25,323 nt of DNA from Candidatus Helarchaeota ASGARD archaeon Hel_GB_B (lineage in GTDB: Archaea > Asgardarchaeota > Lokiarchaeia > Helarchaeales > HEL-GB-B). This document shows positions 5,053-13,260 of the stretch, piece after piece (the first letter of the stretch is position 1; each line of letters opens with the position of its first letter). The notes beneath the pieces are model-generated. The model was not told where the DNA came from. It was given only the letters and a program-made list of their open reading frames with translations, and made no database searches. The stretch lies in contig SUPR01000048.1 in the NCBI GenBank assembly GCA_005191425.1, forward strand, positions 1 to 25,323, in the 5' to 3' direction. The translations under genes were made by a program, and so were the position numbers.

Positions 5053-5064
5053 CCATTTTAAAAA

Positions 5065-5700
5065 CTATAAAATTAAATTTATGAATCTTCTAAAGATTTC
5101 TCGGGCCTTATAGAAATTCCCAAAGCCATCTAATTCATTAAATTAGCCACTAAATCTTTTGAGTTTATATTTCCGTTATCTTTCTATGAATGTTTCGGTA
5201 ATACCCTTTTTAGAATATTGATCCACTTGATGTTTCCATTTTTCAAATTATTCATTATATGTGGTGAGCTACTTTCTGTACACGTCATAGATCATATTAC
5301 AAAAACAATTATGCGATTAAATTTCATGAGTAATTTTTTGATTACTTCGTATACTCTTTTTTTAAGGTATCAATTTCTTGTAGTGATTTAATAATTACTT
5401 CTGAAGTATTAAATACAGCATTAATACGACATTATTCTACGAAATTGAATTAGTCTGAAATGCAGAGCCCTCAATATAATAACGCCCTTATCCTCAAAAG
5501 TATTAAGAGGATATTCCTTCATATTATCAATAAAATGTTCAGCATTTTTAGCGAATCAAGAGAATGTAGCCCTATTTTGATTAGCTAAATTTTGGAAGAA
5601 ATGCATAGTTTTATAATAAAGTATGTATTTTATTCTAAAAATTCATTTTGATTCTTAAATTAATTGATACATCGTTTGCAATATCTGTTTCATACCCTAA
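5065..5700 (-). pseudogene. Heavily decayed gene, possibly a transposase remnant; 5' boundary uncertain
   Basis: Minus-strand fragments with many stops, ending IYDVYRK*...KHQVDQYSKKGITETFIER*RKYKLKRFSG*FNELDGFGNFYKAREIFRRFINLIL*. Loosely resembles the C-terminal IE..KR..G pattern of IS1595/IS6-type transposases. Confidence 0.3.
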
Positions 5701-5890
5701 AGTATCATAAAGGCACGAGGATTGTTTTTTAGGATCTTTATTTAGTGGAGTTTGCTGTTAAGAAAAAAAAATTGTTTAACAAGTAAATCAATTATATATA
5801 TCAAAAGAGAATTTTAATATAAGAAATGAACCAAGATATAAAACAAGAAATGAAGAAATTTTATTAAAATAAAAAAGCGGGGTTTAAAGG

Positions 5891-6529
5891 ATGCAAAAGG
5901 CAAAAATCTGCCCTGTTTGTGGAAAGAAGTTGATGAATCCGAATTCAAAGAGGCATATCAATTCAAAATATCATCAAGATGCTTTAAAAAAGAAAAAAAG
6001 GTTAGAAATTAAAGTTGGACAGAAGACGGTAAGCAAAAAAGTAGTATCAGATAAAGTATCTACTTTAGATAAAACATCTCAAATAAGATTAGAAATAAAC
6101 GAAATAAAAAATCAATTAGTTCAATTTATTAATACGCTAAATCAGTCAATAAATTATTATAATAAAAAGATAGAAGCGTTTAGTAAAAGTATTATTGATA
6201 TAAATTCGCGTATTTATCGAATTGAGGATTATCTTAAATTAAAACCATTGAAATCCAATAAAAAGAGCATTTTTATCAATAAGAATCAATTAATTAAAAT
6301 TATGAAAGAGATTGCAAAAAAGGATGAGGGAAAATACATAACATTTTATGATTTAAGAGAATATATTAGGGACAGATATAATGTAGAAAACGAGAATTGG
6401 GAAGATTTAATCGAGAAATTGAGAGACGAGGGAAAAATTCAATTTTCAAAGGGTGCCAAGTCTAACGATATGGACGAAGGATATAAAGACAGTTTTAATA
6501 AAGTATATTATTATTTTAAATTAAATTAA
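5891..6529 (+). CDS. C2H2 (U1/matrin-like) zinc finger - coiled coil - winged-helix protein
   Basis: C7-x2-C10-x11-H22-x5-H28 (CPVCGKKLMNPNSKRHINSKYH). Heptad-like segment IRLEINEIKNQLVQF...RIYRIEDYL. C-terminal wHTH-like segment ITFYDLREYIRDRYNVENENWEDLIEKLRDEGKIQF...VYYYFKL. Confidence 0.85.
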   Translation: MQKAKICPVCGKKLMNPNSKRHINSKYHQDALKKKKRLEIKVGQKTVSKKVVSDKVSTLDKTSQIRLEINEIKNQLVQFINTLNQSINYYNKKIEAFSKSIIDINSRIYRIEDYLKLKPLKSNKKSIFINKNQLIKIMKEIAKKDEGKYITFYDLREYIRDRYNVENENWEDLIEKLRDEGKIQFSKGAKSNDMDEGYKDSFNKVYYYFKLN

Positions 6530-6544
6530 ACGAGTAATGAGAAA

Positions 6545-9082
6545 ATGAGCAATGAGTATAACTTGGATAAGTTAATTTTGAAGTATCAAGATAAAAACCC
6601 CTTTCCAACAAATGTAATTACCAAGAAAGGAACGAATTTAAGGGTATTTATCGGCAGACAGGTGGAGATGAAGGAGATAGGTAGGGTTTTCAAAAAGATT
6701 TCAGATGAGAGAGGTATTTGTAAAGTAATTATTATTGAAGGGGAAAGCGGAGTGGGGAAATCTACATTATTCAAACGAATATGTGATTTCATAAAGGTAA
6801 ATGATTTAAAAGATTTAGATTTGAATAATTTTAAAATAAACATAGCTTGGATAGAAGCCCCGCAAGATTCAAGCAAATTTACGTTCGAGTATATTTATAT
6901 GTATTCAATTCAGGGGTTCTCAGAACCACCTGCAGATATGGGATCAGATATAATAAAAAGAACCGTAAAATATTTACATGAAGGAGCAATATATTACACA
7001 TTTAATTCGGAGGAAAGAAAGTTTGTAGACGTATTATACTCTTACTTTTTTCATAGAAAAATGACCCCAACGGAATTTTTTAAACGCGATTATGACATAA
7101 ATGCTACTGATTTTAATTTCAAAAAATTAATTGAATTAATTGGTACCCATAAGCGGACAATTAGGCGATATTTAAAAGATTTTGAGATTGATTACAAATA
7201 TTTTTTAAAGTTTTTAAAAACGGCACACCCAAATAATAAAATTTCAGATGAAGCAAAAGATGATATTGAGGCTGAAATAGTTCATGATAAAAATTTTCTA
7301 AAATCAGAAGAAGATTTCAAAGCAATATTTAAGAACATGATTAATATTTATAAATGGACTTATGATGAATATAATTCGGTAGTAGTTATTGCAATGGACT
7401 CATTCGAGCAATACCGTTTTGAAGATTTTGATCGGATATTCACTTTTTTATTAAATATACGAAATAGCGACCTCAAAAACTTTATCCTCTTTATTATAGG
7501 GACCGATCAATTTTGGAATGATTTTAAGAATTTCCTAGAGGATAAAAAAAGTGGATATATACAATTTCAAGATTTAATTGGGTTGGACCTAAAACTTGAG
7601 CATTTAACTTTTAATGAGACTACCGAAGTTATCAGAAAATATTTAGAATATTATTATAAAGAAATTGGCGGTACTCCTAGCTCTAATCCATTCTATCCCT
7701 TTAATACCAATTCTATTGAATATTTATACAGCAGTTGTGGCGGAAATATCAGAAAAATCTTAATAAAACTCAGAGATGTGTGGGAGTTTTACCTAAAAAA
7801 CAATAAAGTTCCAAAAATCCAAAATAAATTCCAAGCTATGAAAAATTTTAGGGAATCTAGCTCGATCGAACTCTCTTACGCTGAAATTGAGATCCTTTAT
7901 AATTATTTTAATGACCAATCAAATTTTTCAACTTGGGGCACTCGCTCGAGTTTGGTTGAACAAGGAGTTCTCAATATGCTTAATTTTTTTAAAAATCATT
8001 ACCCTGAAATCGCTGAAATACACAAAAATCCTGAAATCATAGTAAGTGGAAGACGAGTTCGCCCAGATATTTATTTTATTCTATTTGGAAATCTAGGAGA
8101 ATCAGAACAGAAAAGAATCGAAATACAAGTCAAAATGTACGAAGAAAAAAGTCCCGTAAAATTAGAGGAAGCTAGCACATCTGTCGATTTACTTCAAAAT
8201 TTCAAATTAGAATACCTTTACTTTTTAACTACATCACCTCTACACTTAATATTAAAACAACGATTAAAAGAATTCGGACAGCGGGTCGGCGGATTTAACC
8301 CCTTAAATAAAGAGCAAATAGCTTACCTCACGCTAATATTACCAAATCATTTTGACCAGATTTTTAAAAGGGAAATAACCCTTGATGATTATCAATATCT
8401 ATTTCAAAAAATCTTTAATTTTTCATTTGACTTTTTTCTTGACTATATGAGATTAATTCCTAAAAATACTGGCATTAGAACGCTTGAAGTAATAATTCCT
8501 GAAACATCGATTAACGAGTTAAGAAGTAAATTTGAAACTATACAAGTTAGTATCCCGCAAGATTTAAGCGTAAATGAACTTGTAAAATCAAAAACAGTAC
8601 CAATAGAAACGACGCAACCACCCAAAATTCCTGCTCAAAATGATCAGTTATTGCCACCTAAACCTATAGAACTTTCATCTATAGATTCTCAATCTTCTAT
8701 TACTACATATTTAAAATCTACTTCTCCAGCCATTGACGATATATTAACCCCATCCACCACGCAGACCTACAACTCTGAACCAACACCCAATACCAACCCA
8801 ACTCTTAAACACGAAAATCTTGAGACTATTATTCCTCAAAATCTCAAAAATGTTGTAATTAGTACTCTTATTAAAATGGCTAATAGAACTGGTAGATATA
8901 AAAATCGAGCTACACTCGCTTGGCTTAAAAAGGAACTGGCTGATGATTTCACTCAAGATAAAATTGGTAATGGATTTAAATGGCTTAAAAATAGCAACCT
9001 AATCAATTTCGAAAAAACCTCCATATATCTAAACGAAAATTCTAAAATTTTAATTGATAAATACAAAAGTCTCGTTAAATAA
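6545..9082 (+). CDS. P-loop AAA+/STAND-like ATPase fused to an Mrr-like PD-(D/E)xK endonuclease and a C-terminal winged helix
   Basis: FIGR pre-motif; Walker A GESGVGKS (aa 66-73, nt 6740-6763); Walker B VVVIAMDSFE (aa 279-288); lid YPF...CGGNIRKIL. Nuclease motifs E472...PD508...EIQVK530 followed by YLYFLTTS. Pro/Thr/Ser-rich linker (~8600-8815). Terminal wHTH-like ATLAWLKKELADDFTQDKIGNGFKWLKNSNLINF. Confidence 0.9.
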   Translation: MSNEYNLDKLILKYQDKNPFPTNVITKKGTNLRVFIGRQVEMKEIGRVFKKISDERGICKVIIIEGESGVGKSTLFKRICDFIKVNDLKDLDLNNFKINIAWIEAPQDSSKFTFEYIYMYSIQGFSEPPADMGSDIIKRTVKYLHEGAIYYTFNSEERKFVDVLYSYFFHRKMTPTEFFKRDYDINATDFNFKKLIELIGTHKRTIRRYLKDFEIDYKYFLKFLKTAHPNNKISDEAKDDIEAEIVHDKNFLKSEEDFKAIFKNMINIYKWTYDEYNSVVVIAMDSFEQYRFEDFDRIFTFLLNIRNSDLKNFILFIIGTDQFWNDFKNFLEDKKSGYIQFQDLIGLDLKLEHLTFNETTEVIRKYLEYYYKEIGGTPSSNPFYPFNTNSIEYLYSSCGGNIRKILIKLRDVWEFYLKNNKVPKIQNKFQAMKNFRESSSIELSYAEIEILYNYFNDQSNFSTWGTRSSLVEQGVLNMLNFFKNHYPEIAEIHKNPEIIVSGRRVRPDIYFILFGNLGESEQKRIEIQVKMYEEKSPVKLEEASTSVDLLQNFKLEYLYFLTTSPLHLILKQRLKEFGQRVGGFNPLNKEQIAYLTLILPNHFDQIFKREITLDDYQYLFQKIFNFSFDFFLDYMRLIPKNTGIRTLEVIIPETSINELRSKFETIQVSIPQDLSVNELVKSKTVPIETTQPPKIPAQNDQLLPPKPIELSSIDSQSSITTYLKSTSPAIDDILTPSTTQTYNSEPTPNTNPTLKHENLETIIPQNLKNVVISTLIKMANRTGRYKNRATLAWLKKELADDFTQDKIGNGFKWLKNSNLINFEKTSIYLNENSKILIDKYKSLVK

Positions 9083-9330
9083 CTAATTAGTCATAAGAAT
9101 TCCTGATAATTTATTTGAACAGAGGAATTAAAACATAATCTTATTTTTTATAAATAATTGAAATTTTGTTGGACGTTTGTTTAAATCGATGTTTCCTTTA
9201 AAATTGTTAATTAGGTACATTTTAATAAATGGTAATTTTTTAATAAATTGTTATTCAAGTCTATCAAAATGTTTGGTCCCATAGGAGCAGTTCATGATAA
9301 ATTAATTTTATGAGCAGGAGAGATATTTAG

Positions 9331-10224
9331 ATGGACGAGATTGACATTTTTTATGATATGGAAACAGGAGACCCGGATGATCCGATAGCAGTATTAATGC
9401 TTGCGTGTAATAAAAGAGTGAAATTAAGGGGGATCAGTATATATCCAGGTTCTAAGGACCAAGTAGGATTTGTGAAGACAATGCTTAAAAATATAGGCTT
9501 AGATGACGTATTGGTAGGGAGTAGAGACCCGAGATCTCCATTAAAGGGCCTCCAAACTTCAAAAATTTATAGAATATTTGCATGCGGGGATTTTAGTTCG
9601 GTGGAGCCGGATGGATTAGGGCATGAAATTTTAGCAGAATTATGCGCCAAATATCCCCGTGGACTGCTAATATCAGGTGCACCATTGGGAAATATATACG
9701 ACCTTTTGACCTATCACCCAGAAATTAAATTTGACAAGATGTTTGTTCAGAGCGGATTTGCAGGCGTTAATTGTATACCAATAGAGCGACAGCACCCTCG
9801 ATATAAGGGGTTAGAAACTTTTCGAGCGCATAATTTCGACTTGTATTTAGAAGGTGCCTGGAAGTTCTTAAATTCACCTAATATTGAGAAAAAATATTTA
9901 ATTTCAAAAGATGTCACTCATTTTGTAATTTATGACCATGAACTTCATAAATTGGTCAAAAAGAAAACAGCAGAGCACCCTGCGTGGCGTCTTATATGGG
10001 ATTCTATGGAATATTATCTTAAGAAACATTCAAGAGGAAAAATATTACATGATCCATTAGCGGTATGTGCAGCAATTAATCCAGAAATAATAAAATTTCA
10101 AGAGGTTAAATGTTTTTATAAAAACAGAGGTTGGGGAAGTATACCGATAAAAGGGACGAATATTTTTATATCCGTAGATTTAAATTATGAAGAATTTTTA
10201 AAGGTTTTTTTAGGTGAAAAATGA
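9331..10224 (+). CDS. Inosine/uridine-preferring nucleoside hydrolase family protein
   Basis: N-terminal Asp cluster DMETGDPDD (DxDxxxDD-like), GAPLGN segment and C-terminal LHDPLAV motif; 297 aa. Confidence 0.9.
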   Translation: MDEIDIFYDMETGDPDDPIAVLMLACNKRVKLRGISIYPGSKDQVGFVKTMLKNIGLDDVLVGSRDPRSPLKGLQTSKIYRIFACGDFSSVEPDGLGHEILAELCAKYPRGLLISGAPLGNIYDLLTYHPEIKFDKMFVQSGFAGVNCIPIERQHPRYKGLETFRAHNFDLYLEGAWKFLNSPNIEKKYLISKDVTHFVIYDHELHKLVKKKTAEHPAWRLIWDSMEYYLKKHSRGKILHDPLAVCAAINPEIIKFQEVKCFYKNRGWGSIPIKGTNIFISVDLNYEEFLKVFLGEK

Positions 10225-11085: not shown

Positions 11086-12300
11086 ATGGAGAATAAGAAA
11101 ATGGAAAATATCCCTCAAAATGAAAGGCTATTTTTAGAAGATTTACAATTGGTAATAGGAAAGCCTATTCCTAAAGTTTCAGAAGTAGGTGATGAAACAT
11201 TTGGATATGTTATCAAAAAGGGACACATAACTGAACTAGGATTACATAAAATTGAAGCTAAATCTTTACCTGAAACAATAGGTGAATTACAGTTCCTTGA
11301 AAAATTGAATTTACGCCATATGCTCCTTAGTAAACTTCCAGATAATTTGTCCAATCTAAAAAATCTTAAATATCTTAACTTGAGTGTAAATAGCTTTTGG
11401 TCCTACCCTGAATGCGTAGATAACTTGGAAAAACTGGAGTACCTTTCATTATATAATTGCACAAGCTTAAAAGATTTCCCTTTTTCAATAAATTTACCAA
11501 ATTTAAAAACTTTAGACATGAAATATACAAAAATAAAAGCCGTGCCAGAAATGATACAATATCTAACCTCCTTAGAATACCTCGACCTCTCAGTTAATTC
11601 CTTAACTGAATTACCAGATTTTATCTCCAATTTACGATCATTAAGATTTTTAAACTTAAAATCTAATTCATTAACTCAATTTCCATCTTCAATTTGTAAC
11701 CTGACATCATTAGAAGAGCTAAACCTCGCTAATAACCAAATTTCCGAAATTCCAAATTGTATTGAGAATTTAAAATCACTTAAAAAATTATATCTCGGAG
11801 CAAATCGAATAACGCATATTCCAAGTGCTATAGGTAATTTGACTTTGCTAGAAGAACTAAATATCAGCCAAAACCCATTAACTAACCTCCCAGATGAATT
11901 CGGTAACTTAAGGTCCCTTACCGGACTGAATGCCGCCCTATGTAAATTACAGAAATTGCCCGATTCATTCGGTAATCTTACTTCCCTAAAGTTCTTATAC
12001 GCTTATTCCAATGAACTAAATGAATTACCTGATTCATTTGGTAATTTACGATCACTTGAATTACTAGACTTACACAAAAATAAACTAACTAAATTACCAG
12101 ATAACCTCGGAAATCTTGAATTTCTCGAACAATTTGATGTTGCTAATAACCAACTTAAAGAACTACCACTGTCGATCATTAATTTAAACAAACTAGAAAA
12201 ATTTTTCCTTGAAAATAACAAAATTAAAAAAATCCCAAAAGATATTAAAAAATGGATCAAAACTATGGAAAAATTAGGACACACTATTAAATTTAAATAA
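11086..12300 (+). CDS. Leucine-rich repeat protein
   Basis: N-cap (ERLFLEDLQLVIGKPIP...FGY...ITELGL), about 14 repeats of LxxLPxSxGNLxxLxxLxLxxN, C-cap IKKWIKTMEKLG. Confidence 0.95.
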   Translation: MENKKMENIPQNERLFLEDLQLVIGKPIPKVSEVGDETFGYVIKKGHITELGLHKIEAKSLPETIGELQFLEKLNLRHMLLSKLPDNLSNLKNLKYLNLSVNSFWSYPECVDNLEKLEYLSLYNCTSLKDFPFSINLPNLKTLDMKYTKIKAVPEMIQYLTSLEYLDLSVNSLTELPDFISNLRSLRFLNLKSNSLTQFPSSICNLTSLEELNLANNQISEIPNCIENLKSLKKLYLGANRITHIPSAIGNLTLLEELNISQNPLTNLPDEFGNLRSLTGLNAALCKLQKLPDSFGNLTSLKFLYAYSNELNELPDSFGNLRSLELLDLHKNKLTKLPDNLGNLEFLEQFDVANNQLKELPLSIINLNKLEKFFLENNKIKKIPKDIKKWIKTMEKLGHTIKFK

Positions 12301-12324
12301 TTACAAAAAGAAAGTGTACAAAAA

Positions 12325-13260
12325 TTGCAAAGATTGTTCGAACAAGAAGAAAAAATCATTAGGGAACTCGAAAATTTTCTGGACGAACCCCTCCCACTTA
12401 TCCCAGATGTAATCTATAATAGCTTCGGTTATACCATGGAAAGCCGACATGTAGTAAAAATTGGACTCTATAATAAAGGATTAAATTCAATACCTACTTC
12501 AATTGGAGAACTACCCATGTTAAGAACCCTAAATTTACGCGAAAACCACCTATCAGAATTACCTCACTCTTTCCAAAACCTAAAATCTCTAAAAACCTTA
12601 ATTTTTTCTCACAACAATTTCACTTATTTCCCTGAACCAGTTTGCTATCTTGAAAATCTATCAAACTTAAACATTAACAATAACAAAATAAAAGAACTTC
12701 CTGAATCCTTTGGAAACCTTGCTAACCTTAAAGAATTTAACGCAAAATCCAATGAATTAATAGGTTTCCCTCAATCAATCGGTAATTTGAAGTCTTTAAA
12801 ACTTTTGGACGCTAGCTCCAATAAAATTGAATCCCTACCCTCTAACTTCCCAAAATTAGAACGACTCCAAAAATTATACCTGAATTCTAACTCATTACAA
12901 TTCCTCCCAGAAAATTTTGGTAACCTAATTAGCCTAAAAGAATGTATGCTGCAAGAAAATCAACTCTCTAAATTACCTGGTTCATTTGGACTTCTTAAAA
13001 GGTTACAAACACTTAAATTGTCTAATAATAACTTGACAAACTTGCCTGAATCACTCGGAAATTTGATTAACCTAGAAGTATTATATATCGACCACAATAA
13101 TTTAACAACTCTCCCGGACTCCTTTTGTAATTTAAAAAAACTCCACACCCTTATACTTAAAAATAATAAATTCACCAATTTCTCTCCTGAAATAAAAAAT
13201 TGGCTGGAATCACTTTTCCGTGATAGAAAAATTCTCAGCTTATTGAACTTGGATATTTAA
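12325..13260 (+). CDS. Leucine-rich repeat protein, paralog of and in frame with the upstream LRR gene
   Basis: Same N-cap type (EEKIIRELENFLDEPLP...FGY...VVKIGL), about ten 23-aa LRRs, C-cap IKNWLESL. The start is TTG only. Confidence 0.9.
   Translation: MQRLFEQEEKIIRELENFLDEPLPLIPDVIYNSFGYTMESRHVVKIGLYNKGLNSIPTSIGELPMLRTLNLRENHLSELPHSFQNLKSLKTLIFSHNNFTYFPEPVCYLENLSNLNINNNKIKELPESFGNLANLKEFNAKSNELIGFPQSIGNLKSLKLLDASSNKIESLPSNFPKLERLQKLYLNSNSLQFLPENFGNLISLKECMLQENQLSKLPGSFGLLKRLQTLKLSNNNLTNLPESLGNLINLEVLYIDHNNLTTLPDSFCNLKKLHTLILKNNKFTNFSPEIKNWLESLFRDRKILSLLNLDI

Follow-up and report, generated by a model that had tools for sequence, protein, structure and literature searches.

What is the function of two adjacent genes in an Asgard archaeon that encode an ATPase fused to a restriction-like nuclease and a small protein with predicted nucleic-acid-binding domains? 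The question is raised by a stretch of 25,323 nucleotides (hereafter, the window) from Candidatus Helarchaeota archaeon Hel_GB_B, contig SUPR01000048.1, with a G+C content of about 28%. As listed by the open reading frame (ORF) search, the two genes occupy positions 5891-6529 (212 aa) and 6545-9082 (845 aa), are both located on the plus strand in the same orientation and are separated by 15 nt. The explanation that agrees best with the results is that they constitute a self-contained accessory two-gene module of Asgard archaea encoding a nucleotide-gated DNA endonuclease, which would act against invading DNA in a restriction-like or abortive manner. The probability of this reading is estimated at about one half, and a defence role is considered plausible. 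It is supported by the domain architecture together with the conservation of motifs, by a patchy distribution and variable genomic context, by recurrent NurA-HerA and NERD-UvrD neighbours and, by analogy, by the predicted defence function of proteins combining an Orc/Cdc6 ATPase, a restriction endonuclease (REase) fold and a winged helix-turn-helix (wHTH) (PMC10853773). The two genes, in window coordinates, are:

5891-6529, plus strand: small partner gene, 212 aa; an ORF whose homologs immediately precede the large gene in 33 of 36 loci
6545-9082, plus strand: large gene, 845 aa; AAA+ ATPase, Mrr-like nuclease, linker and wHTH, according to the ORF and the AlphaFold2 (AF2) model

The nuclease domain

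7934-8269, plus strand: Mrr-type PD-(E/Q)xK nuclease core (aa 464-575) with E472, P507-D508, E526, Q528 and K530

As modelled, residues 464-575 of the large protein are a REase-like nuclease domain of the Mrr type with a PD-(E/Q)xK motif and strongly conserved catalytic residues, an assignment on which the topology, the catalytic conservation, the structural matches and a profile-profile match agree. The motif, E472, P507-D508 and E526-x-Q528-x-K530, is intact. Among 41 family members that are about 20% identical, E472 is retained in 39 (95%), D508 in 39 (95%) and K530 in 40 (97%). Position 528 is occupied by glutamine in 30 members and by glutamate in 11, and genuine Mrr_cat domains alternate between the same two residues. 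In the AF2 model, the order of elements assigned by DSSP (helix 464-483, strands 489-494, 509-513 and 523-530, helix 544-551, strand 557-562) corresponds to an alpha-beta-beta-beta-alpha-beta core, where D508 and Q528/K530 sit on the strands expected for a restriction fold.

Structure searches with the whole model of the large protein were filled by AAA+ matches and left the nuclease domain untouched. A search of the ESM Atlas limited to residues 440-665 returned Mrr_cat clusters in eight of ten matches (TM-score 0.44-0.51 over 134-164 residues); one match was a bacterial cluster pairing Mrr_cat with AAA_22/NPHP3_N. The comparison of the domain profile with 11 genuine Mrr_cat domains drawn from Asgard genomes, performed with hhalign, gave a modest match (score 32.6, P 2.5e-4, probability 43%), in which the D and QxK motifs are aligned with each other, compared with scores of 7.6-13.4 for reversed, shuffled and unrelated controls. 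The only recurring Pfam families in scans of the domain were Mrr_cat_2 (13/41 members, best E-value 7.9e-4) and Mrr_cat (6/41), all below the cutoff. The Pfam models NA-iREase1 and Mrr_cat_2, run over the genome to which the window belongs, did not touch the large gene, and searches of PDB sequences with profiles of the full-length protein and of the nuclease domain yielded only generic P-loop hits or nothing.

The ATPase module and the C-terminal part of the large protein

6647-6856, plus strand: first part of the AAA+ core (aa 35-104), with the FxGR motif (R38) and Walker A G66-T74 (K72)
6857-7369, plus strand: helical insert (aa 105-275, about 170 aa) following core strand 2, from the AF2 model and DSSP
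7370-7804, plus strand: Walker B (D285), sensor-1 strand (T320) and lid with R403 in GGNIRK (aa 276-420)
8309-8533, plus strand: helical extension after the nuclease (aa 589-663), AF2 confidence (predicted local distance difference test, pLDDT) above 90
8543-8809, plus strand: disordered linker rich in P, T and S (aa 667-755), pLDDT 29-40
8819-9079, plus strand: C-terminal wHTH (aa 759-845), pLDDT 94-97

The model of the 845-aa protein, built from a 41-sequence alignment, has a pLDDT of 87.2 and a predicted TM-score of 0.73. According to this model, the protein carries an AAA+ module of the Orc1/Cdc6 clade with an intact ATP-binding site. Residues R38, G69, G71 and K72 are invariant in the 41 sequences, as is the Walker B aspartate D285, located 213 aa from Walker A, and R403 of the lid is conserved at 97%. 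Features of the clade found here are Walker A, Walker B and a lid arginine in the sensor-2 position; the AAA+ core and lid are also similar in structure. The Orc/Cdc6 clade is characterised by a helical insert that follows core strand 2 (PMC12839542); this position, that of the initiator-specific motif, is occupied here by an insert that, with about 170 aa, far exceeds the canonical one. Its helices (114-272) lie between the strand 96-104 and the Walker B strand 277-285, and conservation within the ATPase is lowest here (column conservation 0.18-0.31). No conserved arginine was found in residues 321-351, where an arginine finger would be placed, between sensor 1 and strand 5; the residues conserved there or nearby are Q340 and R306. 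The residue following the Walker B aspartate varies between E, N, H, D and S, and this poor conservation suggests that the module may be a nucleotide-binding switch rather than a fast motor.

The closest structural relatives of the AAA+ module were Cdc6/Orc1, TnsC/MuB, BrxC and NLR proteins; the Orc1/Cdc6 matches outscored TnsC, and the similarity to BrxC was limited to the ATPase part. In the AlphaFold database, three full-length clusters of the same family were followed by remoter ATPase proteins with alignments extending beyond the ATPase. The Pfam family AAA_16 matched 39 of the 41 members below the cutoff.

Residues R580 and L587, next to the helical extension that follows the nuclease, are conserved, and the extension could be assigned to no particular fold. 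The linker is gap-rich and unconserved in the alignment, 38 of its 89 residues being proline (13), threonine (13) or serine (12). The C-terminal domain was modelled in the order helix-helix-strand-helix-helix-strand-strand, and HTH_45 matched it in 6 of the 41 members below the cutoff. An hhalign comparison of this domain with the winged helix of the partner protein revealed no detectable relation (probability 3%).

The small partner protein

5891-6016, plus strand: N-terminal zinc finger (aa 1-42), C-x2-C-x11-H-x5-H, a U1/matrin (zf-met) pattern read from the sequence
6062-6232, plus strand: single long helix, coiled-coil-like (aa 58-114), from the AF2 model and coiled-coil matches
6263-6523, plus strand: conserved C-terminal winged helix (aa 125-211), from the AF2 model and winged-helix matches

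The AF2 model of the 212-aa protein has a pLDDT of 82.8. The zinc finger region appears in it as a hairpin and a helix, and the Pfam match to zf-met is weak (E-value 0.11). Zinc fingers with the U1/matrin pattern are known to bind double-stranded RNA or hybrids. Other Pfam hits of the small protein were weak ones to MCM-type winged helices, below the cutoff. Only the C-terminal winged helix and the long helix are conserved across loci. The N-terminal head contains a CxxC/H finger in most loci, a SAP/Rho_N-like domain in others, a helix-hairpin-helix (HhH) in one and some other motif in a few. Judging by these sequences, the head is a swappable, putatively nucleic-acid-binding module that diverges rapidly and is shuffled between types. 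The SAP-like partners of the divergent subfamily were confirmed as homologs with hhalign (probability 94.8%, E-value 4.9e-8). The large protein was also co-folded with residues 60-212 of its partner; the score of 0.01 (mark 0.32) says nothing on binding either way.

The original prediction, made from the letters of the window and its ORF list, had described most of this architecture: two co-oriented genes 15 bp apart, Walker motifs about 205 aa apart with a large helical insert, an AAA+ lid, an intact E...PD...ExQxK motif, a Pro/Thr linker, a terminal wHTH and, in the small protein, two likely nucleic-acid-binding domains joined by a coiled coil. Coordinates and strand agree with this description, the insert proved to be all-helical in the model, the lid contains the GGNIRK motif, the nuclease residues are in their places, the linker is disordered, the terminal domain resembles a winged helix, and the finger pattern, long helix and winged helix are all seen in the partner. 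The REase fold, which had been expected in residues 467-570, is borne out by the topology, the conserved residues, the Mrr_cat matches in the Atlas and hhalign.

Distribution of the family and co-occurrence of the two genes

The nearest homologs of the large protein, with 53-54% identity, were found in metagenome-assembled genomes (MAGs) of Helarchaeota and in sediment metagenomes. An HMMER search over 1.84 billion cluster representatives revealed 64 proteins, 50 of them with an E-value of at most 1e-10 and most of them 700-890 aa long; the family comprises about 50 clusters at 50% identity. Every named member belongs to Asgard archaea (Helarchaeota, Hodarchaeota, Promethearchaeota, "Asgard group", Loki's Castle sediment), and the members are annotated as hypothetical or as "ATP-binding protein". 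One of them is encoded by the cultured Promethearchaeum syntrophicum MK-D1 (DSAG12_00610). A profile search of a set of 5.8 billion proteins, bounded by word-index limits, added no new members, and a search of viral contigs, which reached close relatives only, found no relatives.

Among 400 Asgard genomes, 58 showed a match, about 45 of them with an E-value of at most 1e-18 and the remainder in the P-loop only. The distribution is patchy across families and genera: many complete genomes lack the family, and several genomes hold two divergent copies. No paralog was found elsewhere in the genome to which the window belongs. Across the genomes searched, many of the family loci are no more than 1-4 kb away from a contig end or are carried by contigs of only 3-5 kb, which hints that such regions assemble poorly, perhaps owing to strain variation, though many of these MAG contigs are short anyway.

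The original prediction had also made the proposed system dependent on the co-occurrence of the two genes. A homolog of the partner is located directly upstream of the large gene, in the same orientation, in 33 of 36 distinct loci. At the other loci, the region is cut by contig ends or runs of N (L024, L045) or the large gene is truncated (L015/L029); in the latter case it is degenerate, with an open frame of at most 426 aa and no Walker A region, and has no partner. In another locus (L025:418-923), the partner gene is frameshifted and split over two frames. The pair recurs in dozens of genomes with its motifs kept at about 20% overall identity and is more than a chance association.

The search for the small gene in the 400 genomes gave 39 strong hits, about 30 of which adjoin the large gene, three are located at contig edges and five are solo genes. 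The latter comprise four orthologous loci in one genus (L081-L084) and one further locus (L085). The four orthologous loci share their surroundings, namely the 3' end of a large upstream gene, followed by three convergent genes (about 260, 262 and 435 aa) of unknown function. In one more locus (L086:263-2221, contig G080:C246), the gene after the small homolog encodes a protein of 474 aa that is related to the large one by its ATPase part only and lacks the nuclease domain. Thus, where this could be tested, an intact large gene essentially never occurs without the partner, and the partner can stand alone. This asymmetry resembles that of orphan antitoxins or immunity genes of toxin-antitoxin systems and speaks for the defence reading; it would be expected if the partner restrains a dangerous enzyme.

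Genomic context

9141-9149, plus strand: T-run TTATTTTTT, about 60 nt past the stop of the large gene, read from the sequence

The inspected sequence between the small and large genes contains no T-run. This, together with the presence of TTATTTTTT after the second stop, fits the two genes being one transcription unit, which the run, as a possible archaeal terminator, may close.

The flanking genes differ at every locus, in agreement with an accessory defence module, and no universal third gene was detected. NurA-HerA-like genes are neighbours of the pair in three loci (L026, L034, L037), HerA (DUF87) being present in 3 of 20 wide loci. In L026 (9584-15373, contig G249:C21), genes for a NurA-like protein (356 aa), a HerA/DUF87-like protein (626 aa), the small protein and the large protein follow one another in the same direction, separated by 7, 17 and 24 bp, and this array appears to be an operon variant of the module with four genes. 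In L034 and L037, HerA-like genes are located upstream of the pair. A NERD-UvrD fusion and an unannotated gene of 96 aa recur in L033, L039 and L042. TFIIB paralogs were found near five loci and RNase H near three, and two type III CRISPR genes were also detected. No second REase gene recurs beside the pair.

The divergent subfamily, in which the partner is of the SAP type and the large protein has 820-830 aa (L033, L039, L042, L044), possesses a recurrent neighbourhood with a rearranged gene order. It includes the NERD-UvrD fusion (PADLOC C3a187, E-value 6e-75), the 96-aa gene, TFIIB paralogs and RNase H.

In a congeneric genome, the pair is alone on a contig of 3.1 kb, which aligns to window positions 5776-8441 at 85% identity, the similarity beginning only at 5776. 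The left and right flanking genes of the window are found on two other contigs of that genome with different neighbours. It follows that the region has been rearranged between close relatives; the synteny is broken on both sides of the module, which also favours the defence reading.

In the window, the small gene is preceded by an AT-rich stretch of 840 bp (5053-5890) without an ORF of at least 60 aa. The pair is followed, after 249 bp, by a gene of the inosine-uridine nucleoside hydrolase family (9331-10224); the congeneric genome has an ortholog of this gene (L057/L059, G126:C172) that is 82% identical and contains an in-frame TAA. Farther downstream (11086-13260), two neighbouring ORFs, of 404 and 311 aa, encode leucine-rich repeats (LRRs) and match LRR families of Pfam strongly. 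The tRNA and Rfam scans of the window were empty.

A library of MK-D1 labelled as transcriptomic contains the whole pair (L031:7900-11600) on a contig of 17 kb, and its longest record, of about 90 kb, is likewise identical to the genome. Such long genome-identical contigs suggest that the library carries substantial genomic DNA, and it is therefore no evidence for expression of the pair.

Proposed mechanism and alternative explanations

If the pair is a defence module, ATP-dependent assembly of the AAA+ modules on DNA would bring the Mrr domains together and lead to cleavage. Target recognition may be the task of the variable insert together with the small protein, and the latter may also license or restrain the nuclease. 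A bolder and rather doubtful version of this mechanism would make the pair an Asgard-specific immune system of a new type. In it, a reader subunit with a repeatedly exchanged head (a U1/matrin-type zinc finger in the window, SAP-like or HhH in other loci) would direct an Orc/Cdc6-like ATP switch and the active Mrr nuclease fused to it. The reader would sense the structure of nucleic acids instead of sequence or methylation, for example in RNA:DNA hybrids or in the replication intermediates of invaders, and would double as an inhibitor sparing host DNA.

Several observations weigh against a function in defence. As the original prediction had noted, no methylase or gene of the BREX type is present in the window, and the scanned window ORFs include no other marker for distinguishing self from non-self. 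The large protein of the window matches no Mrr model of Pfam, including Mrr_cat and Mrr_cat_2. No PADLOC model rose above noise; the mad8 and SspC hits were weak and concerned the ATPase only. The 108 nearest neighbours of the family loci hit 160 PADLOC models versus 80 for 108 control genes of these genomes at a distance of about 50 kb or more, but the control hits include a restriction-modification pair, CARF, dCTPase, PDC-S09 and mad8-like ATPases. The gene-for-gene difference is small, and defence genes near the module are not clearly more frequent than among the controls. In addition, the NurA-HerA, UvrD and RNase H neighbours fit DNA repair equally well.

These neighbours lead to an alternative in which the pair is an accessory nuclease for DNA repair or replication conflicts, recognising and cutting R-loops, stalled forks or DNA ends and sometimes handing the ends over to NurA-HerA. 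NurA-HerA-like genes directly upstream of the pair in three loci, UvrD-type helicases and RNase H recurring nearby, the U1/matrin pattern of the partner finger, SAP-like and HhH heads as sequence-independent binders and the similar load of defence genes in control regions are all in accordance with it. A repair factor would, however, hardly be expected to be so patchy, being found in about 45 of 400 genomes and missing from many complete ones, to occur in two divergent copies in some genomes, to lack conserved synteny even within a genus and to leave degenerate copies (L015, L025); the N-terminal modules of its partner also diverge and shuffle fast. Such a role is regarded as unlikely. The pair may alternatively be a module of a selfish or mobile element, either an addiction cassette similar to toxin-antitoxin systems or a remnant of a Tn7/Mu-like system, in which a TnsC/MuB-like AAA+ regulator has been fused to a TnsA-like nuclease with a winged helix. 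TnsA consists of a restriction-fold nuclease followed by a winged helix, which resembles the order found here. The differing position of the module between close genomes, the absence of the large gene without the small one together with the persistence of solo small genes, and the recurrence nearby of TFIIB paralogs, which are common on archaeal elements, are also compatible with a selfish nature. The Pfam scans of the window, however, revealed no DDE transposase or integrase, and no tRNA was found; the module is not flanked by terminal repeats, only AT-rich chance matches being present; the search of viral contigs, confined to close relatives, was negative; and the Orc1/Cdc6 matches outscore TnsC. 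This origin of the pair seems quite improbable.

It is also conceivable that the complex does not cut at all and serves as a DNA-binding or regulatory assembly, for example a chromatin or transcription factor, using the restriction fold for DNA binding only. It would have parallels in the inactive REase inserts of related Orc/Cdc6 proteins (PMC10853773), and the pair does combine three predicted nucleic-acid-binding modules and has TFIIB genes near five loci. What speaks against this possibility is the conservation of E472, D508, (E/Q)528 and K530 at 95-97% over sequences that are about 20% identical, with the same Q/E alternation as in genuine Mrr_cat domains. A non-catalytic function is very improbable.

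The catalogues of Asgard defence are based almost wholly on models derived from bacterial systems (PMC11291487, PMC13700489), and these models fail to detect the pair. If its role is defence, the pair would represent a lineage-specific system in which an active Mrr nuclease is joined to an Orc/Cdc6-type ATPase and accompanied by a partner with an exchangeable head. If it is a repair factor, it would still be an uncharacterised family of ATP-gated nucleases with an obligatory partner. The member encoded by MK-D1 (DSAG12_00610) makes expression and biochemistry directly testable.

Comparison with known systems

The original prediction regarded the two genes as a candidate undescribed system. Its structural part, namely the architecture, the co-occurrence and the REase fold, stands; its functional part, that the pair restricts DNA according to modification or structure or aborts infection and that the small protein targets or restrains the nuclease, is still conjecture. 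Neither protein could be matched over its full length to a named system or to a replication factor, and every hit in Pfam, NCBIfam and PADLOC fell below the cutoff. The hits of the large protein below the cutoff are at the level of the P-loop (AAA_16, NACHT, nSTAND, orc1/cdc6), the NCBIfam model of orc1/cdc6, TIGR02928, reaching 15.2 bits versus a cutoff of 181.3. Two surveys of Asgard defensomes mention no Mrr or AAA+ pair of such a kind, and the MK-D1 locus tags were not found in the literature searched. "Undescribed" is only partly true, however, since the Orc/Cdc6-REase-wHTH layout has already been predicted to function in defence (PMC10853773).

According to that computational work, Orc/Cdc6 ATPases in which a REase-fold domain follows the AAA+ core and precedes the terminal wHTH constitute a predicted defence class; they belong to the "HerA/FtsK capture" and related mobile defence neighbourhoods and occur together with HerA/FtsK, an active REase and wHTH proteins, and the combination of a Cdc6/Orc-clade NTPase with a C-terminal REase is a widespread effector architecture (PMC10853773). 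The part of its supplementary text that was available lists no Asgard members. The pair shares with this class the order of AAA+ (35-420), REase (464-575) and wHTH (759-845), a separate wHTH protein in the operon, mobile and variable contexts and, in 3 of 20 loci, HerA next door. Unlike the class, in which the inserted REase is described as inactive and a separate active REase is present (PMC10853773), the pair keeps the catalytic residues in its REase. HerA is absent from most loci of the pair, including the window, and the partner, with a single wHTH, a coiled coil and a swappable head, is not a DndG/SspB-like protein with two to four wHTH domains. It should be noted that the two are set apart by description, not by sequence comparison.

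Type IV REases of the Mrr/Mrr_cat group (PF04471, PF13156) have the same alpha-beta-beta-beta-alpha-beta core, the D...(Q/E)xK motif and the glutamate in the preceding helix, but no member of the present family reaches the Pfam cutoff, and the domain is placed inside an 845-aa ATPase instead of following an N-terminal winged-helix reader. The large protein differs from the Orc1/Cdc6 initiators by the length of its insert, about 170 aa, and by the nuclease and 90-aa disordered linker before the wHTH; the patchy distribution of the family, with several copies in some genomes, is also unlike that of initiators. BrxC of BREX, SspC and mad8 are ATPases without a nuclease, and no PglZ, PglX, Ssp or MADS partner genes are located near the pair, neither PglZ nor PglX being among the window ORFs scanned. 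In the case of Tn7, TnsC and TnsA are separate proteins, and here the two parts are fused in one polypeptide, with no TnsB-type transposase and no element ends.

Avs and NLR-like STAND proteins with Mrr-type effectors likewise combine an NTPase switch and a restriction-fold effector. Their order is reversed, the NTPase coming first and the effector second in the pair, which has no TPR, LRR or WD40 sensor array and requires a separate small partner. The NACHT, NB-ARC and nSTAND hits of Pfam were below the cutoff and limited to the P-loop, and the AF2 model contains no repeat domain.

The pair is neither categorically new nor a member of any named system. With its shared layout, but with catalytic residues kept, HerA usually absent and a partner built differently, it is a variation on the Orc/Cdc6-REase-wHTH theme.

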